Shown here: positions 13,932 through 34,791 of the stretch, in pieces | Layout: each line of letters opens with the position of its first letter | Position numbering within the stretch: position 1 is the stretch's first letter | Source: Candidatus Anderseniibacteriota bacterium | GTDB lineage: Bacteria > Patescibacteriota > Andersenbacteria > UBA10190 | Length of the DNA: 64,000 bases | Reading direction: 5' to 3' | Assembly (NCBI GenBank): GCA_021414205.1 | Contig: JAIOOW010000003.1 | Span: 300,365-364,364, forward strand | Program-made: the position numbers and the translations under genes | The notes under the pieces: generated by a model | The model's input: only the letters and a program-made list of their open reading frames with translations | Database searches by the model: none | What the model was told of the DNA's origin: nothing

Positions 13932-14016
13932 GACAAATAGTTTTAATTATAGTAATAATTACACGCAATGTATTCGCAGTGGCGGTGTGTTGATGATCTT
14001 TTTCAAAGGAATTCCG

Positions 14017-14532
14017 ATGAGTGTTGTGAGCCCTTCTTTTGCTGATTGTGCGAGACGGTTTTGCAATATTGATGACTTGCCGGCCTGGCTTGAGCAGCAG
14101 CGATCGGCGGCTGTTCCAGACGATTGCTGGGATTTTCCGCATGAGCATGGGTTGATTGATTTGCATGAACTCGAAGAGCTTCTTGGAGACAATTGGCTTC
14201 GCGCCTTATCTGATTATGCAGTACCGTTTAGCACTGCCGAGTTGGAAGTTTTTGGGTTCTGTGAAGCTATCATCTGCATGCAGCCGTCGTTTGCCGCATC
14301 TGGCGCCCGGACGTACCCGGTACGCGATGGAGTGATTACCGTGTTTTCTGGAGAGAATTTTTCAGCAGTCTTTTTGGGCAACGACGATACTTATCGGCAT
14401 ATTGAACAATCGTGGGAAGCGCTGTTCTGCATCCTTAGTGCTTGGCGACATGCTCCTGATCAGGCGCAGCGCGAGGCAGCACGCGAATTTCTGTGTGGCT
14501 TGGTCGAACAGGCCATGAATACGCAAGAGTAA
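14017..14532 (+). CDS. hypothetical acidic protein (171 aa)
   Basis: AAAGGA RBS before ATG (MSVVSPSF..). TTGACA-containing promoter-like sequence roughly 75 nt upstream. Locally higher GC. No family recognised. Confidence 0.5.
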   Translation: MSVVSPSFADCARRFCNIDDLPAWLEQQRSAAVPDDCWDFPHEHGLIDLHELEELLGDNWLRALSDYAVPFSTAELEVFGFCEAIICMQPSFAASGARTYPVRDGVITVFSGENFSAVFLGNDDTYRHIEQSWEALFCILSAWRHAPDQAQREAAREFLCGLVEQAMNTQE

Positions 14533-14558
14533 TTGGTCTTTTGGGGTAAAACACAAAC

Positions 14559-14595
14559 GGCGATCAGTATTGCAACTGACCGCCGTTTTTTCTTT
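14559..14595. terminator. bidirectional Rho-independent terminator
   Basis: GGCGATCAGT..ACTGACCGCC stem with T-runs on both sides, between the convergent acidic-protein gene and nrdB. Confidence 0.55.
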
Positions 14596-14605
14596 TCTTA
14601 CTTCC

Positions 14606-15625
14606 CTACCACTTCAACGACCCTGCGTTCTTGTATTCCGTTACTCTCGTTTCAAAGAAGTTCTTTTCTTTTCGCAAATCGATAATTTCGCTCATCCATG
14701 GGAACGGATTTTCTGCACCGTATACCTTTTCTAGATTGATTCGCTCCAATCTTCTATCTGCAACATATTTTAAGTATTCGTCGATTGTATCTGCGTTGAG
14801 TCCCAAGATCCCTGTTGGTAAGCAGTCATGCGCGTATGCGGATTCAAGCTCCACTCCATGCTTGATATTTTCCGTAATCGTCGTCTTGAATTGCTCTGTC
14901 CAAATTTCTGGATTTTCTTCAACGATGGTGTTGATCAAATCTGTTCCGAATGCCAAGTGCACCGATTCATCGCGAAGAATAAATTGGAACTGCTCCCCTA
15001 CTCCGACCATTTTGTTTTGGCGAAGGAACGAAAGCATCATCACGAATCCCGCGTAGAAGAAAATGCCTTCCATGATGACGTAGAATCCTACCAAGTCATG
15101 TACAAATCGCTGAATGTTTTCTGTGCCGTTGGTAGAAAAATTCGGATCCGATAGGGATTTTGTCATGTTTACTACGAACTCATCTTTGTGCTTAATGCTT
15201 GGAACTCGGTCGTACATGGTATACACATCGTCCGGGTCGAGTCCTAACGTGTCGCAGCAGTAAATGAATGTGTCGGTGTGCACAGCTTCCTCGTATGCTT
15301 GGCGCAAGAGGTACTGGCGGCATTCCGGATTCGTAATGTGCTTGTAGATGGTAAGGACAAGATTGTTTGCTGTGAGGCTTTCTGCTGTTGAGAAGAATCC
15401 CATATTCCACATAATGAGTCTGCGCTCGTCATCGGAAAGAACAGACGTGCTCTTCCATGTTTCCACGTCTTTTTGCATGTTTACTTCATCGGGCGTCCAG
15501 TTATTTGCAACACCAGACTGGTAGTGCTTGCGCGCCCACTTATACTTCATCGGAAGTATTTTATTCGGGTCGGTGGTTGCGCAGTTTAATATCTTCTTTT
15601 CAGCTGTTTCCATAGTTATTGACAT
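14606..15625 (-). CDS. nrdB: ribonucleotide reductase class I beta subunit (R2)
   Basis: Ferritin-like di-iron ligand motifs (EEAVHTDTF, DESVHLAFG), conserved FYAGFVMMLSF. Confidence 0.9.
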   Translation of the reverse strand: MSITMETAEKKILNCATTDPNKILPMKYKWARKHYQSGVANNWTPDEVNMQKDVETWKSTSVLSDDERRLIMWNMGFFSTAESLTANNLVLTIYKHITNPECRQYLLRQAYEEAVHTDTFIYCCDTLGLDPDDVYTMYDRVPSIKHKDEFVVNMTKSLSDPNFSTNGTENIQRFVHDLVGFYVIMEGIFFYAGFVMMLSFLRQNKMVGVGEQFQFILRDESVHLAFGTDLINTIVEENPEIWTEQFKTTITENIKHGVELESAYAHDCLPTGILGLNADTIDEYLKYVADRRLERINLEKVYGAENPFPWMSEIIDLRKEKNFFETRVTEYKNAGSLKW

Positions 15626-24861: not shown

Positions 24862-25263
24862 TCAGCGATGGTGGTGATACCCGCCGCGGAATCCGCGAGC
24901 GCCATATGGTTGGTATCCGTATCCGCCGCCGTATCCATAGCCTCCGTAGCCCCTGTTTGAGAGTGCTACAATGGCGGCTGATGTTACGAGTGCTTGACCG
25001 ATTGGCATTGGTCGACCATAGCCTCCGTACCCCATGTTGCCGTAGCCGTATATGGGGCCTGGCGGAACGTATCCACCACTTCCGACATATACGCCGTTAG
25101 GGTACAAGACGCCGGTGACGGATCCATTCGGGCCGTACGATGCTTGCGGACTGGGTGTCCAAGCAGCAGCGCCGTAGCCGCCGAATTGTGCCTTCGCCTG
25201 CTGCGCACTTCCACACAAAATGATCCCAATGGCCATTACAAATAACAAGCTGCACCATCGCAT
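24862..25263 (-). CDS. secreted Gly/Tyr-rich low-complexity protein
   Basis: Signal peptide (MRWCSLLFVMAIGIILCGSAQQAKA). Mature part is dominated by GYG/GGY repeats and ends in GGYHHHR. Confidence 0.6.
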   Translation of the reverse strand: MRWCSLLFVMAIGIILCGSAQQAKAQFGGYGAAAWTPSPQASYGPNGSVTGVLYPNGVYVGSGGYVPPGPIYGYGNMGYGGYGRPMPIGQALVTSAAIVALSNRGYGGYGYGGGYGYQPYGARGFRGGYHHHR

Positions 25264-28416: not shown

Positions 28417-29079
28417 TTATGCACTTTGCGCAAGCAGCTCGAGCTGCTTTATGTTTTCTGCAGGATCTCCTTTTTTAAATATACTTGAATTTGCACAAAA
28501 AATAGTTGCACCTGCTTCTGCGTATTGCGAAATAGTTTCTTTGTCTACGTGGCCATCTACGGCGATTTTTACTGCAGGATTTTTAGTATGAAAGTCTGCT
28601 ATTTTTTTGAAAATTTCTGGATCAATATCTTGCCCGGCGAACCCTGGCTTGTATCCCATGAATAATACGTATTGAACTAGTGGTAAATATTCCGTGAGCC
28701 GAGAAATATCGGTGTCAGGGTTTATGGCAACGCCCATTTCTGCGCTGGTGTATTCTCCTACCGTGTTATATACAAACGGCAAATCCATCGTTCCTAAAAA
28801 AGCTTCAATATGAAATACACAGCGGCTGGGATTTACGTCGATAATATCTTCAACGTAATCAGCAGGGGTTTGGACCATTATGTGCAATTCGATTTTTTGG
28901 GATTGAGGCAAATCTGCCAATCGCGGAATATCCATAAAGCTTTCATTGCCCGCAAAAATTCCGTCAGTAATATCTATCTGAATGTGCTCCGCTGCACCCA
29001 CTACTTTATTCCAGTCTTCTTCTATTTTTTCGTACGTTGTTTTTAAAATCGCCGGCACGATTTCGATGTTATCGTTCAT
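28417..29079 (-). CDS. rpe: ribulose-phosphate 3-epimerase
   Basis: TIM-barrel RPE motifs (IQIDITDGIF, HIMVQTP, MGYKPGFAGQ, VDGHV). Confidence 0.85.
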   Translation of the reverse strand: MNDNIEIVPAILKTTYEKIEEDWNKVVGAAEHIQIDITDGIFAGNESFMDIPRLADLPQSQKIELHIMVQTPADYVEDIIDVNPSRCVFHIEAFLGTMDLPFVYNTVGEYTSAEMGVAINPDTDISRLTEYLPLVQYVLFMGYKPGFAGQDIDPEIFKKIADFHTKNPAVKIAVDGHVDKETISQYAEAGATIFCANSSIFKKGDPAENIKQLELLAQSA

Positions 29080-29522
29080 TGTTCTAATTTCTTTATTTTT
29101 TCGACTCTGCGTTCGTGCCGTTCCAATCCTGAAAATGGAGTATCTAAAAATGTTGCAATAATCGCCTTCGCTTCGTCGAGCGCGAGGAGGTCGGCACCTA
29201 GGCAGAGAGCGTTGATATCATCATCATTCCGTGCGGTCTTTGCCACGTCTACGGATTGAATATTTGCGGCGCGCACTCCTGCGATTTTGTTTGCGGCAAC
29301 TGCAACGCCCACTCCTGATCCGCATAGTAAAATGCCGCGGGTATTCTCCGGGTCTTGTGCGATTTTTTGTGCAACAGATACGGCGTAATCCGGATAATCA
29401 TCTCCTTCTGTGAATTCTTGGGCACCCATATCTTCTACCACATACCCTTCTTGAGCAAGCCATGCGACAATCCCCTCCTTCATTGCAAACCCACGATGAT
29501 CAGCGCCAATATATATATTCAT
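29076..29522 (-). CDS. rpiB: ribose-5-phosphate isomerase B
   Basis: MNIYIGADHRGF..LLCGSGVGVAVAANK matches RpiB/LacAB. Start taken at the MNIYIG ATG (track ORF extends to 29540). Confidence 0.85.
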   Translation of the reverse strand: MNIYIGADHRGFAMKEGIVAWLAQEGYVVEDMGAQEFTEGDDYPDYAVSVAQKIAQDPENTRGILLCGSGVGVAVAANKIAGVRAANIQSVDVAKTARNDDDINALCLGADLLALDEAKAIIATFLDTPFSGLERHERRVEKIKKLEQ

Positions 29523-29547
29523 GCGATTAACTATACCCAACTTAGGG

Positions 29548-30183
29548 CTAATATTCTACGTTCTCGCCAGGTTCTAGTGCATCAAATTGAATTCCCGCAT
29601 CTTCCAATACTTTTTTTGGCACCGTGTATATCCATGTTCGAGAAGTTAAAATCGCATCGTGAATCGGGATGCAAACTCTTGGTTTAATTGAAAGTGCCCA
29701 ATCCAGTGAATCTGAAATTTTCATCCATGGGCCAGCAATTGGCATACCCAGAATTTCTACTGGAACATTCGGCGTTATAAATGCATCGCCTGGCAAAAAG
29801 AATCTGCTTGCAATCAAGTACCCGGTATTCATCACAACTGGAATTGTTTTGTAGATAACGGCGTGATCTTTCCCGAATCCGCTAATAGTAATTTCTTTTA
29901 TCGTCGTTGTTTGTCCATCTTCTACAATCTCGCACGCAATCCCCTGTTTTTCTAATAATTTCGCAACAGCGCTATTTGTTATAATTTTCGCTTCAGGATT
30001 ATTCCTAAGAACTTCTTTTACGGAATCAATATGAAAATGGTCCCCATGCTCATGCGTAATAATAATGATTGAAATGCCGGTGAGTGAATTTTGTTCGTTT
30101 GTAAACATTCCCGGATCCGTCAAAATCCCTACGCCGTTTTCTATAATATGAAGGCAACAATGCCCGATTTTTGTGATGGTCAT
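29548..30183 (-). CDS. MBL-fold metallo-hydrolase
   Basis: HxHxDH motif (ITHEHGDHFH) and downstream His/Asp ligands. Confidence 0.75.
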   Translation of the reverse strand: MTITKIGHCCLHIIENGVGILTDPGMFTNEQNSLTGISIIIITHEHGDHFHIDSVKEVLRNNPEAKIITNSAVAKLLEKQGIACEIVEDGQTTTIKEITISGFGKDHAVIYKTIPVVMNTGYLIASRFFLPGDAFITPNVPVEILGMPIAGPWMKISDSLDWALSIKPRVCIPIHDAILTSRTWIYTVPKKVLEDAGIQFDALEPGENVEY

Positions 30184-30208
30184 GTATGCAGTATACCGAA
30201 GATTGCCA

Positions 30209-30237
30209 TTGACTTTTTATTATTTTTAATATATATT
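30209..30237 (+). promoter_or_regulatory. sigma70-like promoter (TTGACT-17-TATATT)
   Basis: Hexamers at 30209-14 and 30232-37, upstream of the small gene at 30297. Confidence 0.4.
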
Positions 30238-30240
30238 CAT

Positions 30241-30269
30241 ACGTCGGATTATTTTTGGATGTCCGACGT
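30241..30269 (+). promoter_or_regulatory. inverted repeat in 5' leader (ACGTCGGA..TCCGACGT)
   Basis: Perfect 8-bp inverted repeat with 13-nt loop between the promoter and the RBS of the 30297 gene; no T-run follows. Confidence 0.3.
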
Positions 30270-30296
30270 TTGCCCTCTAACAATAAGGACTTTTTT

Positions 30297-30590
30297 ATGA
30301 GTTGGGAGAGTGTTGCAGAAGATGTTGCTATGCAGATTATTTCGATGGATCCGTGTAATGCGGATGCGGGGATGGTGAATTTCTGCAGAGTTGCGTTGAT
30401 TGGAATTTCGCAGTTGCCTGAGTGCCCAGAAAAATATCGGGAGCAGGCCCAACGGCTTCAGGAGGACTATGTTCGGCTCGCAGCAAATCCTGGAGAGTAT
30501 GCGGAATGGAATGACGTTGCAATTAAAACCCATAACCTGCTTGCTAGGCTGTCGGGATGTGGAGCTTACGCGACCATTTATTACACCTAA
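30297..30590 (+). CDS. hypothetical small protein (97 aa)
   Basis: AAGGAC RBS 7 nt before ATG (MSWESV..); no recognisable family. Confidence 0.5.
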   Translation: MSWESVAEDVAMQIISMDPCNADAGMVNFCRVALIGISQLPECPEKYREQAQRLQEDYVRLAANPGEYAEWNDVAIKTHNLLARLSGCGAYATIYYT

Positions 30591-30625
30591 TAATGCCTTA
30601 CGCTCAGCTACTCCTCTTCTTTTTA

Positions 30626-30660
30626 GCCCCGTCTTAATTTGAGGCGGGCTATTTTATTTT
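30626..30660 (+). terminator. Rho-independent terminator
   Basis: CCCGTC..GGCGGG stem (with G-U) followed by ctattttattttcc. Confidence 0.45.
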
Positions 30661-30690
30661 CCTGACGTGTGAGTAAGTATTTTATAATAG

Positions 30691-30719
30691 TTGACTAATA
30701 TATAATTATATGCTTATAT
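30691..30719 (+). promoter_or_regulatory. sigma70-like promoter (TTGACT-17-TTATAT)
   Basis: Hexamers at 30691-96 and 30714-19; a CAGGAG RBS 9 nt before the ATG at 30761 follows. Confidence 0.45.
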
Positions 30720-30760
30720 AGTATGTTCTGAGGGAATCGAATAATTCAGGAGATATCGGA

Positions 30761-31294
30761 ATGTACTTTATATGGAAATGTATTCAATGCTTTATTTGTT
30801 GGAGAGTGCGATTGCCCAATTGGAGCGATGACGCCCAGGCCGTGTGCGCATGCACGTTTGGTCGATCTGATGATATCTGCAATAAGGCGATTGCGTGCCA
30901 TGTAGCTGTCATCGCCATGGAGCACAAACTCCCCTTCTGCGTGCAAGGTGAAATCGGAGCATATCTCGACAAGAGTTTGCTTGGGTATCGTTCTGCTGAA
31001 AGTTCCGATGTTCATCATCGAGAGTATGTCGGTACCTATGAAACGGTGCATGAACAGGTAACGTGCTACTTGCAACCGCAGCGGATTACCAAAATCCATG
31101 TGGAGGCGCATCCGGAACACGCATGGCGAATGGTGATGTGTTATCGCCACTTTGGAATGGAAGTGGTAAGCGTGTGCACGATGGGTAAACCGTACCCTCC
31201 TGCATCCACTCAAGTGTGGTGTCGCAGCAAGTTTCGATTTGTGCCGTACGAAGTCCTCGCTCGCCTTCTGTATGTCGCAAAGGGATACATGTAA
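30761..31294 (+). CDS. hypothetical Cys/His-rich protein (177 aa)
   Basis: Promoter and RBS upstream; N-terminal CIQCFIC, many Cys/His. An overlapping antisense ORF (30746..31213) is also open, so strand assignment is tentative. Locally elevated GC. Confidence 0.4.
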   Translation: MYFIWKCIQCFICWRVRLPNWSDDAQAVCACTFGRSDDICNKAIACHVAVIAMEHKLPFCVQGEIGAYLDKSLLGYRSAESSDVHHREYVGTYETVHEQVTCYLQPQRITKIHVEAHPEHAWRMVMCYRHFGMEVVSVCTMGKPYPPASTQVWCRSKFRFVPYEVLARLLYVAKGYM

Positions 31295-31335
31295 TGTTTC
31301 GACCGTATGGTTCGCCCTGCGGTCGTTTTTATTTG

Positions 31336-31406
31336 TTCCCGGACAGGGATTCGAACCCCAGTTTCAAGATTCAGAGTCTTGCGTCCTGCCGCTAGACGAT
31401 CCGGGA
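31336..31406 (-). tRNA. tRNA-Gln (anticodon CUG)
   Basis: Manual fold: acceptor TCCCGGA/TCCGGGA, D-arm GTCT-AGCGGCA-GGAC, anticodon arm CAAGA-CTCTGAA-TCTTG, T-arm with TTCGAAT loop. CCA not encoded. Confidence 0.8.
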
Positions 31407-31460
31407 ATGTATCAATAGTTTCAATGAAAATGCGAAATAATACAAGTTTTGTAAAGAAAA

Positions 31461-31485
31461 CACCGTCAGTTTGTGGCTGACGGTG
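31461..31485 (-). terminator. Rho-independent terminator on minus strand
   Basis: CACCGTCAG..CTGACGGTG 9-bp stem; on the minus strand it is followed by UUUUCUUU. Confidence 0.5.
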
Positions 31486-31518
31486 ATGTAGTGTGCGGTG
31501 GCGCAAGAGGCGTTGGTG

Positions 31519-32073
31519 CTACTCTTGCTCGCATCGTATTTTTACGAGCATTCGCGGGTTCCTTCGCGGATCCAGAGATCCTTCGGCGGCGTCGATTGCG
31601 AATAATATGAGCCAGAGCAAAGCACATCCAAAAGCAGATGTTGTCAAAGGTAGGTTTGTGCTATGCCAAGCTACTGGCAAAGTGCTAACTACTGCGTATG
31701 ACAGCACTGGCACGATGAACAAGTTGTGAAACCATTGAGCCGGAAGATTGTTCCAGCTGTTCGATTCTCTACCATTTTTAAGGCCAACGTACTGGATAAC
31801 AATCCCGGCAACGAGCGCCAAGACGGCGACCGTTACGTGATACCAGGCCTCTGTATGGACTCCCTTTGGAAGTTCATGCTGGCATATGCCGGCAACAAGT
31901 CCGTAATAGAGCGCCAGCGAAGCGTCACCAGGGCAGCTGGAGAAGGCCACGTCATAGACGACGCCTTCTGTCTTCCATCTGATGAGGTACAGTAATCCTG
32001 TCGTAACGCAAATCGTTGCAATCATCACAACCCACCATGGCGCATGGGTAGCAATCCAAATGCTTGGCAACAT
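31519..32073 (-). CDS. hypothetical multi-pass membrane protein (184 aa)
   Basis: Four to five hydrophobic helices; AAGGAG RBS 8 nt before ATG. Confidence 0.6.
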   Translation of the reverse strand: MLPSIWIATHAPWWVVMIATICVTTGLLYLIRWKTEGVVYDVAFSSCPGDASLALYYGLVAGICQHELPKGVHTEAWYHVTVAVLALVAGIVIQYVGLKNGRESNSWNNLPAQWFHNLFIVPVLSYAVVSTLPVAWHSTNLPLTTSAFGCALLWLILFAIDAAEGSLDPRRNPRMLVKIRCEQE

Positions 32074-32254
32074 GACTAGCTCCTTATTGATATGGGAATG
32101 TTCGGTCGTTTCGCGAGTACGTATAAATTAGTATATAATAGTACTATTGTCAAGTTTTAAAAGATCAGGAGTGGTCGTAGGGTGTAAGTAGCCTGGTGTG
32201 TAGAGATTCTGTTATGAGTGCTCTTTTTCAAACCCTGGAAAGCGAGTGTGTGGC

Positions 32255-32884
32255 ATGAAGGTCCGGCCCCTTAAAATTGATGAAGTGAATCTCGTCATTT
32301 CGGATCGTGGTGTTTCGTCGGTATTGGCATGCATCGTGCTCAAGTCGTTGATCGGTAGAAAGCAGGTGGATTTCTTTTGGCTGAGTCATGGAATGTGCCA
32401 CTTGGAAGAGATGACCACGCTTCTCGGCAGGAAAACACGAGAAACTGTTTGCGTCGGATTCAGTCCTGACGATGGCCAGGATGTTGCAGCCTTGGTCTCC
32501 ATGATTGCCGCTGACGCGCATCGGATTGGAGGGATTTGCGATGTCCATGGGCGATCTGCCTGGTTGCGACGCATAGGAACGTTCGCTCAATTGTTTCTTC
32601 AGCCGCAGAATGCTGATAGATACTTCACATGCCCTGGTCGCGTTCTGCTGAATGCATTTGCTGATCAGTTTGAAACATACGAACGCGAATTGTGCGATCT
32701 TTCTCATCATGCAGCGATGGGCGAACTGCGCGATTTTGCTCAGACGATATCCTGGATTGCTCCTGAAGATCCGAGCATGGACGGGAGGCGCACAAACCTC
32801 GTTAACCACTTTGCATTCGACCATAACCCCAGTCCCCAAATTTCGAACTGGATACAAGAAGCTCGGCAAAGGGAAACAGCATAA
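32255..32884 (+). CDS. hypothetical protein (about 209 aa)
   Basis: Open frame co-directional with the downstream ABC ATPase gene. An antisense ORF (32228..33013) is also open in this GC-richer segment, so the call is tentative. Confidence 0.35.
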   Translation: MKVRPLKIDEVNLVISDRGVSSVLACIVLKSLIGRKQVDFFWLSHGMCHLEEMTTLLGRKTRETVCVGFSPDDGQDVAALVSMIAADAHRIGGICDVHGRSAWLRRIGTFAQLFLQPQNADRYFTCPGRVLLNAFADQFETYERELCDLSHHAAMGELRDFAQTISWIAPEDPSMDGRRTNLVNHFAFDHNPSPQISNWIQEARQRETA

Positions 32885-32954
32885 TGCTTTTTCGAATTCG
32901 AGGTGGTACGTACTCACGTATCGCCTCTCTTTTATTTTTGGTATACTTACATGC

Positions 32955-33866
32955 ATGAATGATGCGTTTGTTGATGTGAAGAATGTAAAAGCGCGATATC
33001 GCGGATTAGACACGGACGTATTGCATGGAATTTCTTTTACGGTACATCACGGAGAGCATGTGTTGGTGTATGGTGCGCCAGCGTCTGGAAAATCCAGTTT
33101 ACTGAAAATGCTCTGCGGAGATTTGGATATTGTATCTGGAAGCGCCATTGTGAATGGAAAGGATATTTCTGGAGATGCAGCGCTCCGTTCTGGATATGTA
33201 TCAGTTAATCATGAGGAATTGCATGCGAGTAAGACAGTGTATGACAACCTTGTAGAGTTCGGCGATGAGTATGATGTTCCCCACTTGCCTGCTCGCATCG
33301 GCGAATTGCTGGAGCTTCTTGAAATGAAGCAGTTGGCGAATAGGAATATGCAGACGTTGTCCTTTACGGAAAAAATTGCATACGGATTAATTCGCGCATC
33401 TCTTTCGGATGCTCCCGTGTTGTTACTAGACGATGTGCTTGATGCATTTGGTGTTGAAGAAACGCAGCGATTTTTAAATGTTGCGTGCGCTGGCAAGACG
33501 GTTCTTCTTACCACGCGAGTGACTCAGAATGCAGAGCAAATGAATTTGCCGTTATTGCTATTACACAACGGAACACTGGCACACACGGGCTCACGAGACG
33601 ATATTGCAGTGGCATCGGGAGTGCCGAGGATTATTGATGCATGGGTAGAAGAACTTCGTTATGATATGTTGAAAAAAATACGATCCCATAGCGGCGTGTT
33701 AGAAGTTCGCATCTTGCCAACAGATAGATTTGAAGGAAATTTAGTGCGTATTATGATTAGGAACTCTCGCTTCATCCCCTCTTTGTATGATGTGATGAGC
33801 CAGTCTCAGCTAGTGCACGTAGAAGAAGTGCCTCCGAAGTTGATCGATATTCTCAAGACTATCTAG
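32955..33866 (+). CDS. ABC transporter ATP-binding protein-like, degenerate catalytic motifs
   Basis: Walker A is intact (GAPASGKSS), but the signature motif is LSFTEK (not LSGGQ), Walker B is LLLDD (no catalytic Glu) and the H-loop His is absent. C-terminal roughly 100-aa extension. Confidence 0.65.
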   Translation: MNDAFVDVKNVKARYRGLDTDVLHGISFTVHHGEHVLVYGAPASGKSSLLKMLCGDLDIVSGSAIVNGKDISGDAALRSGYVSVNHEELHASKTVYDNLVEFGDEYDVPHLPARIGELLELLEMKQLANRNMQTLSFTEKIAYGLIRASLSDAPVLLLDDVLDAFGVEETQRFLNVACAGKTVLLTTRVTQNAEQMNLPLLLLHNGTLAHTGSRDDIAVASGVPRIIDAWVEELRYDMLKKIRSHSGVLEVRILPTDRFEGNLVRIMIRNSRFIPSLYDVMSQSQLVHVEEVPPKLIDILKTI

Positions 33867-33867
33867 T

Positions 33868-34791
33868 TTATTTTAAGTATCGTCGTACGGCGATGTAGCT
33901 GCTCATGATTGCCAAGAGGAGTGCAACCCCCGCTTCCGCTCCAATCAACTGAACCCAGTGCGATGTTGTGTATGCGTAGATATCGAACGTTGCTTGTTGT
34001 CCTGAGAAAAAGAATTGATTAATTTGGTTCGCGCCAGCATTTAATACCAGGAATGTAAGTATAATGCTGATAGTGACGCTAATAACGGCAACGAGCATGG
34101 ATTCTACGATAAACGGACTTTGGATATACCAGCGCGATGCTCCTACTAGCCGCATAATATCGATCTCTTCCCGGAAGCTGTAGATGGCTAATCGAATTGT
34201 GTTGAACATGATGAGCATTACGAGAATTGCGAATATTCCCGTAACAATGAGTGCCGTATTTTTCGTAATCGTCATGATGTGGATGAGCTTTTCGATGACT
34301 GATTTGGAATCCTCGAAATTCACTTTATCGATGTACTGACTGTAGGTTGGATCCTTAAGACTATTTGAAATGTCCGTATAGAATTGAGGGTCCTTTGCAA
34401 CGATGTACATGCTGTTTGGAAGCGGATTTCGTTGTAGTTCGCTTAATGCCTGTTCGATGTATGGCTCATTCTTATGCTTTTCTCTAAATTGGTTGAGTGC
34501 ATCTTCGCTGGTCGTTATATGTGTATCTTGGACGTCGGGTCTGCCGTCGATTGCCTGCTTGATTACATTGATTTGGTCCGGGGTTGTTGTGTCTTTGAAG
34601 ATAACGGCAATGTCCACTTTCTGGCTGAATGTAGTGAGTACCTGGGTTCCAATGACGTTGACGACGTATAAGAATGAAATCACGATCAGCGTGAGTGTCA
34701 TGATGACGGTCGTTGCAATAGATAGCCATACGTTTCTCCTGAAGTTTCGGAATGCATTGCGAAATATGCGAAGTAGTGTAATTCCAATCAT
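33868..34791 (-). CDS. ftsX: cell division ABC transporter permease FtsX
   Basis: Four TM helices with a large periplasmic loop, downstream of ftsE; typical FtsX topology and size. Confidence 0.85.
   Translation of the reverse strand: MIGITLLRIFRNAFRNFRRNVWLSIATTVIMTLTLIVISFLYVVNVIGTQVLTTFSQKVDIAVIFKDTTTPDQINVIKQAIDGRPDVQDTHITTSEDALNQFREKHKNEPYIEQALSELQRNPLPNSMYIVAKDPQFYTDISNSLKDPTYSQYIDKVNFEDSKSVIEKLIHIMTITKNTALIVTGIFAILVMLIMFNTIRLAIYSFREEIDIMRLVGASRWYIQSPFIVESMLVAVISVTISIILTFLVLNAGANQINQFFFSGQQATFDIYAYTTSHWVQLIGAEAGVALLLAIMSSYIAVRRYLK

Follow-up and report, generated by a model that had tools for sequence, protein, structure and literature searches.

A probable flexible gene slot around a conserved tRNA-Gln(CUG) gene in an Andersenbacteria chromosome

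A segment of 64,000 nucleotides from contig JAIOOW010000003.1 of a Candidatus Anderseniibacteriota bacterium (the whole segment is hereafter named the window) contains, between the genes of a metallo-beta-lactamase (MBL)-fold hydrolase and of an ATP-binding cassette (ABC)-like protein, a stretch of ~2.8 kb (positions 30184–32954) with one tRNA-Gln(CUG) gene and four small genes. This stretch is probably a flexible gene slot in the chromosome of Andersenbacteria, which belong to the candidate phyla radiation (CPR), and its reading as a mobile element is not favoured; we give this interpretation a probability of roughly three in four. Such a slot is ordinary genome flexibility, a known kind of feature. 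The original prediction had described a longer stretch (30.2–33.9 kb) as a GC-rich accessory segment, possibly acquired at the tRNA, or else as simply a variable region. The latter option is favoured here, because gene subsets differ among relatives in the same slot.

Gene content of the slot in related genomes

The FtsX protein of the window was scanned against one genome per species, which provided 48 loci. The close loci (46–96% FtsX identity) belong to Candidatus Andersenbacteria metagenome-assembled genomes (MAGs) or to CPR MAGs labelled Saccharibacteria, and the distant ones (35–40%) to Doudnabacteria. In the Andersenbacteria loci reaching past ftsX, the order found by tblastn was prfB-ftsE-ftsX followed by the convergent ABC-like gene, and then rpiB-rpe-tkt where the contig extends that far, with a gap between the ABC gene and rpiB of ~1.0 kb (locus L010) to ~5.9 kb (L012). 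The left flank of the slot is the conserved MBL-fold hydrolase gene (29548–30183, minus strand; Pfam Lactamase_B_3, 1.9e-17), with orthologues in L003, L004, L005, L015, L027 and L051–L054. The right flank is the ABC-like gene, hereafter named ABC303 (32955–33866, plus strand). The predicted tRNA-Gln(CUG), which anchors the slot, was confirmed at 31335–31406 on the minus strand by ARAGORN and Rfam (RF00005, 59 bits against a threshold of 29) and has a cloverleaf with the CUG anticodon. Of 24 scanned Andersenbacteria loci, 18 have a tRNA-Gln(CUG) downstream of the ABC gene, as have L051–L054, and either orientation occurs. It is a conserved resident and the sole constant element of the slot.

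Both ABC303 and the tRNA are core across the Andersenbacteria loci, and the variable part is restricted to 30184–32954. The accessory segment proposed beside tRNA-Gln therefore stands for the stretch from the MBL hydrolase to the ABC gene, which is atypical and varies among relatives, but not for the ABC gene (~0.9 of 3.7 kb), which is conserved, as is the tRNA. Four single-gene units were recognized within the slot: A97 and B177 on the 3' side of tRNA-Gln, and mem184 and D209 on its 5' side. Gene calls on the matching Logan contig (SRR15633504) gave proteins of 97, 177, 184, 209 and 303 amino acids from the MBL hydrolase to ftsX, matching those first proposed.

These four genes are confined to a few close relatives, in which their combinations differ. 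The window has A97 and B177 on the MBL side of the tRNA, and mem184 and D209 on the ABC side. In L003, A97, B177 and an APC permease are present on the MBL side, and a 182-amino-acid open reading frame (ORF), mem181 and D209 on the ABC side. Locus L052 has B177 on the MBL side and D209 on the ABC side. In L053/L054 the tRNA abuts the MBL gene, and mem179 and D214 lie on the ABC side; L051 carries B182 on the MBL side and no gene (57 bp) on the other. Unrelated genes occupy both sides in L004 and L005, including those of YdjM-like, NUDIX, secreted and coiled-coil proteins. Relatives with 81–83% FtsX identity carry none of the four genes in this slot, and profile searches over all ORFs of all loci gave no further copies.

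Comparison with L052 revealed clean single-gene insertions or deletions. Window positions 30201–30690 (490 bp, comprising the A97 promoter, gene and terminator) correspond to 34 bp in L052, and in the window the A97 unit is bracketed by an imperfect direct repeat of promoter-like sequence (TTGACT...TAATATATA...). Positions 31475–32127, with mem184, its ribosome-binding site (RBS) and its terminator, are missing from L052, which keeps nothing of them except the left arm of the mem184 terminator stem. The persistence of half of this stem indicates that mem184 was deleted in L052. In L003, a 1.41-kb gene of an APC-family amino-acid permease (13994–15404) directly follows the tRNA-Gln 3' end. The window, L052 and L051 do not have this gene, which comes with neither an integrase nor junction repeats and is most simply explained as an insertion in L003. 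One way in which the slot changes is through small deletions and insertions at short repeats or microhomology, as the junctions show directly.

A direct repeat of ~420 bp was observed in L004 (12751–13172 and 14691–15113; ~91% identical over the first 300 nt), containing a 108-amino-acid ORF. Starting immediately behind the tRNA-Gln 3' end and ending at the MBL start, it brackets the genes of a secreted 195-amino-acid protein and of a NUDIX protein; the interval holds a run of N, and an assembly artefact is possible.

Coding evidence for the four slot genes

The window and L003 are 87–89% identical in nucleotides over the whole region, and the substitutions between them were assigned to codon positions. 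The counts at positions 1/2/3 were 3/4/11 for A97, 3/5/19 for B177, 11/7/37 for mem184 and 4/9/28 for D209, and the ratios of nonsynonymous to synonymous divergence (dN/dS) were 0.14, 0.15, 0.12 and 0.20, respectively. These ratios are close to that of rpiB (0.13) and somewhat higher than those of other flanking genes (0.01–0.08). The bias towards third positions and the low dN/dS in the called frames settle the coding strand, which had been considered doubtful. By this substitution pattern, purifying selection acts on A97, B177, mem184 and D209 in their called frames, and all four are genuine protein-coding genes.

The doubt had come from long ORFs open on both strands, which do exist: 30761–31294 (plus) against 30746–31213 (minus), and 32246/32255–32884 (plus) against 32228–33013 (minus). 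The two minus-strand frames are exact codon complements of B177 (155 amino acids; antisense dN/dS 2.3) and of D209 (261 amino acids; antisense dN/dS 1.8) and are regarded as shadow ORFs, not genes. The frame antisense to B177 is interrupted by stops in the L052 and L051 homologues, and that antisense to D209 is broken in those of L052 and L053; in L003, protein conservation is 93% in the D209 frame but 84% in its antisense frame. Antisense frames stay open because A97, B177 and D209 lack the codons TTA, CTA and TCA, whose complements are stop codons; the homologues of L052, L051 and L053 do contain these codons, and there the antisense frames are broken. Conserved antisense genes were rejected on account of the interrupted frames and the antisense dN/dS above 1. 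Shadow ORFs of at least 120 amino acids are common over the whole window and are not specific to this region.

A reading of the region as non-coding or decaying DNA, or of the antisense ORFs as the real genes, is scarcely credible; in this reading the open frames would reflect a lack of constraint or overlapping genes. All four ORFs have coding-potential scores at or below zero (see below), antisense ORFs of 155 and 261 amino acids do exist, and three of the four genes have no family match. However, the third-position bias, the called-frame dN/dS of 0.12–0.20 against antisense values of 1.7–2.3, and the stops in the antisense frames of the L052, L051 and L053 homologues all contradict it, as does the placement of B177 in a family of 228 cluster representatives with a confident structural model. 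Furthermore, the Rfam search of the region returned the tRNA and no other family, whether at gathering thresholds or at E ≤ 10. A large structured non-coding RNA was rejected on this result and on the substitution pattern, which is that of coding DNA.

Each of the four genes would be an autonomous unit with its own promoter-like site or RBS. Upstream of A97 (30297–30590, plus strand; a 97-amino-acid acidic orphan) lie a promoter-like site at 30209–30237 (TTGACT-17-TATATT, 10 of 12 consensus positions) and, in the leader, a hairpin at 30240–30272 (plus strand for both; RNA fold −14.7 kcal/mol, z = −2.2 against shuffles), so that the small gene with its own promoter and leader hairpin was found as described, both signals being predictions. 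A terminator-like hairpin follows A97 at 30628–30648 (plus strand; 9-bp stem, then a T-run). B177 (30761–31294, plus strand) has AGGAG 7 nt before its ATG and, upstream, an imperfect copy of the A97 promoter-like sequence at ~30692–30716, in agreement with the predicted promoter-like site and RBS of a Cys/His-rich 177-amino-acid protein. The mem184 gene (31519–32073, minus strand) has AAGGAG 6 nt before the ATG and a terminator-like hairpin at 31461–31485 (minus strand; 9-bp stem, then a T-run), and D209 (32255–32884, plus strand) is followed by another at 32900–32927 (plus strand; 12-bp stem, then a T-run). Three units would thus end in a terminator-like hairpin; B177 may use a hairpin between its own stop codon and the tRNA 3' end.

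A97 has a homologue in L003 only (95% amino acid identity). Among 5.8 billion proteins, mem184 has two homologues, in addition to the copy of 51% identity in L053/L054, and D209 has three (93, 86 and 62% identity), which all lie in the slot. No match for A97 or mem184 was obtained in Pfam, NCBIfam, PADLOC or PHROG, nor for D209 in these databases, in PDB sequences, or in metagenome or viral contigs. By these searches A97 and D209 are without detectable relatives outside the slot. The 184-amino-acid multi-pass membrane protein and the hypothetical 209-amino-acid protein were both upheld as called: mem184 shows ~5 hydrophobic segments, judged from the sequence by eye, and is on this ground classed as a small integral membrane protein, and the D209 gene call and frame were the same. 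B177 and D209 were considered as paralogues and rejected (BLASTP E = 0.18; hhalign probability 0.2%).

Base composition and codon usage

By eye, the segment had been estimated to contain about 50% GC against about 44% in its flanks. This holds only in part. The core at 30750–33000 stands out, with 48.6% (99.8th percentile among 2.25-kb windows), but the full 30200–33900 has only 46.6% and ranks at the 93rd percentile among windows of its size, the mean of the window being 45.3%. The GC-richest 2.25-kb stretch of the 64 kb begins at ~30800 (48.9%), and the immediate flanks have 42–44%. The four genes contain 48.6–50.6% GC, 3–5 points above the gene mean (z = 1.1–1.8 against 52 other genes, 45.2 ± 3.0%); the spacers between them are AT-rich (32–47% GC), and ABC303 has 44.7%.

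Codon usage and coding score provide a stronger compositional signal than GC. With a 3-periodic Markov model trained on the other genes of the window, the four genes scored −0.03 to 0.00 per nucleotide, below every training gene (0.052 ± 0.015, minimum 0.012), and ABC303 scored 0.037. None of the 483 codons of A97, B177 and D209 is TTA, CTA or TCA (background 4.3%, minimum 1.8%), where ~15–16 would be expected, whether from the codon usage of the genome or from the positional composition of the genes themselves. The windowed GC and codon comparison suggested for this segment does show an atypical slot, in GC and in GC at third codon positions (GC3), but most clearly in the coding score and in the missing codons. 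A higher-GC donor or selection are possible causes of the missing codons. The codon usage of the slot genes would account for the raised GC, the unusual codon choice and the open antisense frames, all as by-products.

The depletion of TTA, CTA and TCA in A97, B177 and D209 is weaker in the distant homologues (L052, L051, L053). Outside the slot, the GC-richest gene of the window (57.5%) is a 133-amino-acid ORF at 24862–25263 (minus strand), well above any gene of the flagged segment. The cumulative GC skew climbs nearly steadily over positions 1–64000 (G exceeds C on the plus strand), although most genes lie on the minus strand. A replication origin or terminus at 30 kb was rejected, the local change in skew lying within this near-steady rise.

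Exchange of the slot between related lineages

Identity to L003 was followed along the region in 150-nt bins. It is 75–89% in most bins of the flanks, 77–86% across the ABC gene and in that half of the MBL gene which borders the slot, and 83–88% immediately inside the MBL gene, and rises to mostly 89–97% between ~30190 and 32990. The spacers next to both flanks and between mem184 and D209 are also ~95% identical. On the MBL side the step falls no more than ~50 nt from the start of that gene, and on the other side just inside the start of the ABC gene; dips occur in the A97-B177 spacer (79%) and at the tRNA-proximal indels. Synonymous divergence (dS) from L003 is 0.17–0.39 in the four slot genes and 0.43–0.96 in rpiB, MBL, ABC, ftsX and ftsE. 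The relationships also differ between slot and core: D209 is closer to L003 (dS 0.19) than to L052 (0.44), whereas ftsX (0.58 to L052, 0.96 to L003) and the ABC gene (0.41 and 0.94) are closer to L052. We infer recombinational exchange from this sharp drop in synonymous divergence within the block and from its discordance with the core genes. Homologous exchange of the block between related lineages would be the second way in which the slot changes.

The dS of rpiB (29076–29540) against L052 is only 0.08, compared with 0.5–0.9 for its neighbours rpe, MBL and tkt, as if a short tract within the core genes had been recombined. From these divergence patterns, recombination seems to be common among these populations, the slot block being one such tract.

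An alternative is a purely vertical history, in which four ancestral, fast-evolving genes were differentially lost by CPR streamlining, with no horizontal exchange. The half terminator of mem184 in L052 does show a deletion, the slot genes are always found at the same slot, and the L053 proteins related to D209 and mem184 are only 62% and 51% identical, compared with 82–98% for core genes, which is consistent with fast evolution. Nevertheless, this history is unlikely. The dS of the block against L003 is 2–5 times below that of neighbouring core genes and changes sharply at the block borders, and the relationships of D209 conflict with those of the core genes. In addition, B177 occurs in the distant L051 and not in the intermediate L053, L004 and L005, so that several independent losses would be needed, and the core genes are themselves mosaic, as seen in rpiB, which indicates active recombination.

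Search for signatures of a mobile element

No integrase, recombinase or transposase domain was found in the ORFs of 30184–33866 or in the related-slot ORFs scanned. Searches of the window and of L003 for the 3'-terminal 24-mer and 20-mer of the tRNA, with up to 3 mismatches allowed, matched only the tRNA itself, and no border (attachment site, att-like) repeats were found around the segment. The absence of an integrase and of direct repeats, already remarked upon in the original prediction, is confirmed, while the duplicated tRNA 3' fragments that would mark island borders did not appear. Nor does the tRNA act as an integration landmark, as had been proposed: it is a conserved resident with variable genes on both sides. 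PADLOC and PHROGs gave no match for the four slot genes, and four viral-contig scans, covering all four slot proteins, returned no relatives; on these empty results a defence-system or phage origin was rejected.

We consider it very improbable that the slot is the remnant of an integrative island or prophage that targeted tRNA-Gln and has since lost its tyrosine or serine integrase and att sites. The segment does adjoin a tRNA gene, is GC-richer and has atypical codon use; its composition deviates from that of the host, as expected of an island (the GC core at the 99.8th percentile, the coding scores and the missing codons). Moreover, the 1.41-kb gene of L003 sits exactly at the tRNA 3' end, and the direct repeat of L004 begins right after it. 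However, the slot genes vary singly and on both sides of the tRNA, where an integrase island would be present or absent as one unit. The related slots checked are as devoid of integrase, recombinase and transposase domains as this one, no copy of the tRNA 3' end exists within 3 mismatches in the window or L003, and all homologues of B177, D209 and mem184 with a readable context are in the same slot, none being found in viral contigs or on other backbones.

The flexible slot favoured here resembles the plasticity zones and flexible islets, often beside tRNA genes, in that it is fixed between conserved flanks, has strain- or species-specific content, is atypical in composition and turns over by recombination through the flanks. 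It differs from them in its very small size (2.8 kb, four single-gene units), in the lack of mobility genes and att repeats, and in having variable genes on both sides of the tRNA. To our knowledge, flexible slots have been little described in reduced CPR genomes.

B177, a remote DUF218/YdcF-like protein

Among 5.8 billion proteins, B177 has six close homologues, and 8 Cys and 4 His residues are invariant in this set. The Cys content of B177 is 6.8%; this Cys-richness is not common to the wider family. Searches of Pfam (E ≤ 0.1), NCBIfam, PADLOC and PHROG gave no match. However, a profile of the 7 B177 orthologues recovered 228 cluster representatives, nearly all full-length (~160–200 amino acids), and 56 of 111 aligned relatives matched PF02698 (DUF218), with a best E-value of 4.9e-8. 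The ten nearest non-orthologous relatives reached 15–27 bits against a gathering score of 27.6.

An AlphaFold (AF2) model obtained from the 111-sequence alignment had a predicted local distance difference test (pLDDT) score of 94.6 and a predicted template-modelling (TM) score of 0.90; with 7 sequences the model was unusable (pLDDT 41.7), and the larger alignment was needed. The model has a YdcF-type alpha/beta fold, and its top match among PDB structures was E. coli YdcF, 3ca8 (probability 0.99, E-value 6.9e-3, TM 0.50). PDB sequence searches with profiles A1, A2 and A3 gave nothing meaningful. In the 111 relatives, conservation of H120 and of E164 is at least 90%.

The E. coli DUF218 proteins SanA and ElyC take part in peptidoglycan and envelope-polymer homeostasis, and YdcF binds S-adenosylmethionine (PMC12176290, PMC3879167). 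The catalytic triad proposed for DUF218 is Thr-His-Glu (PMC12176290); by motif reading, not by alignment to the Pfam model, the expected Thr appears as Ala or His in the B177 clade. B177 resembles the DUF218 family (PF02698: YdcF, SanA, ElyC, YgjQ) in the overlap of its wider family with PF02698, in its predicted fold, in its size, which is that of a single-domain cytosolic YdcF-type protein, and in the motif VAHPxHxWR at the place of the conserved His and Arg of DUF218 (alignment read by eye). It departs from the family in its scores, its Cys-richness and the apparent replacement of the triad Thr, and from SanA and ElyC in having no N-terminal membrane anchor. On the strength of the family overlap and the structural model, B177 is filed as a remote DUF218/YdcF-like protein, and is most likely a cytosolic enzyme with the DUF218/YdcF-type alpha/beta fold. 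A weak analogy with SanA and ElyC suggests that its substrate may be nucleotide-linked or an envelope precursor.

ABC303, a core gene with degenerate motifs

The degenerate ABC ATPase that had been placed in the accessory segment is indeed an ABC-type protein with degenerate motifs (303 amino acids; PF00005, 1.2e-18, 68.5 bits), but it is a core gene of normal composition. It is convergent to ftsX in the Andersenbacteria loci, 36 of which hold near-full-length orthologues (L003–L034, L038 and L051–L053), and its dN/dS of 0.07 against L003 indicates purifying selection. Walker A is intact (GAPASGKS), whereas the signature reads LSFTE, Walker B LLLDD and the H-loop TTR, with His replaced by Arg; the neighbouring FtsE is canonical (MSGGE, LLADE, ATH). 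The same pattern (signature LS[ST][TA]E[RK], Walker B LLLDD, H-loop Arg) is found in the 36 orthologues, and by this comparison the degenerate motifs are clade-wide and do not signal decay. ABC303 also carries a conserved C-terminal extension of ~90 amino acids.

Like degenerate ABC nucleotide-binding domains, ABC303 keeps the fold and Walker A, and like the degenerate sites of heterodimeric ABC proteins it is without the canonical signature, the catalytic Glu and the H-loop His. Unlike those domains, it stands alone, with no adjoining permease, and is conserved in convergent orientation to ftsEX throughout Andersenbacteria. ABC303 may represent a conserved ABC domain that does not hydrolyse ATP and is linked to FtsEX.

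Strength of the flexible-slot interpretation

Several observations weigh against the interpretation given above. All comparison genomes are MAGs or metagenome contigs, and a strain-mosaic assembly could make or smear the identity step. Only 4–5 relatives carry any slot gene, and gains, losses and transfers are not cleanly polarised. The GC deviation of each gene is below 2 SD, so that no gene is an outlier on its own, and the predicted promoter and terminator matches are not more frequent than in shuffled sequence. The dS of B177 is low against both L003 and L052 (0.16–0.17), which could be due in part to constraint on synonymous sites and not to recent exchange. As regards its family assignment, B177 itself is below every Pfam threshold; among its relatives, most DUF218 matches fail to reach the gathering score, and the matches are confined to the C-terminal half of the model.

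Implications

A more specific proposal is doubtful, namely that the slot serves as a cassette exchanged by recombination, by which Andersenbacteria species trade a small module of envelope-related function (B177, a protein with five transmembrane segments and two orphans). If it were true, these would be new protein families in the surface or host-interaction biology of episymbiotic-type bacteria, and the avoidance of TTA, CTA and TCA would point to a shared foreign donor or to selection on transcripts.

The value of the present results lies mainly in the annotation. The coding strand is fixed for four doubtful ORFs and two long shadow ORFs are discarded, the ABC-like gene and the tRNA are reclassified as core, and B177 is given a DUF218-like family. 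Two or three very narrowly distributed orphan families result, and current understanding is unchanged. For a reduced CPR genome, the flexible slot would represent a small, clean case of recombination between lineages and of turnover gene by gene.

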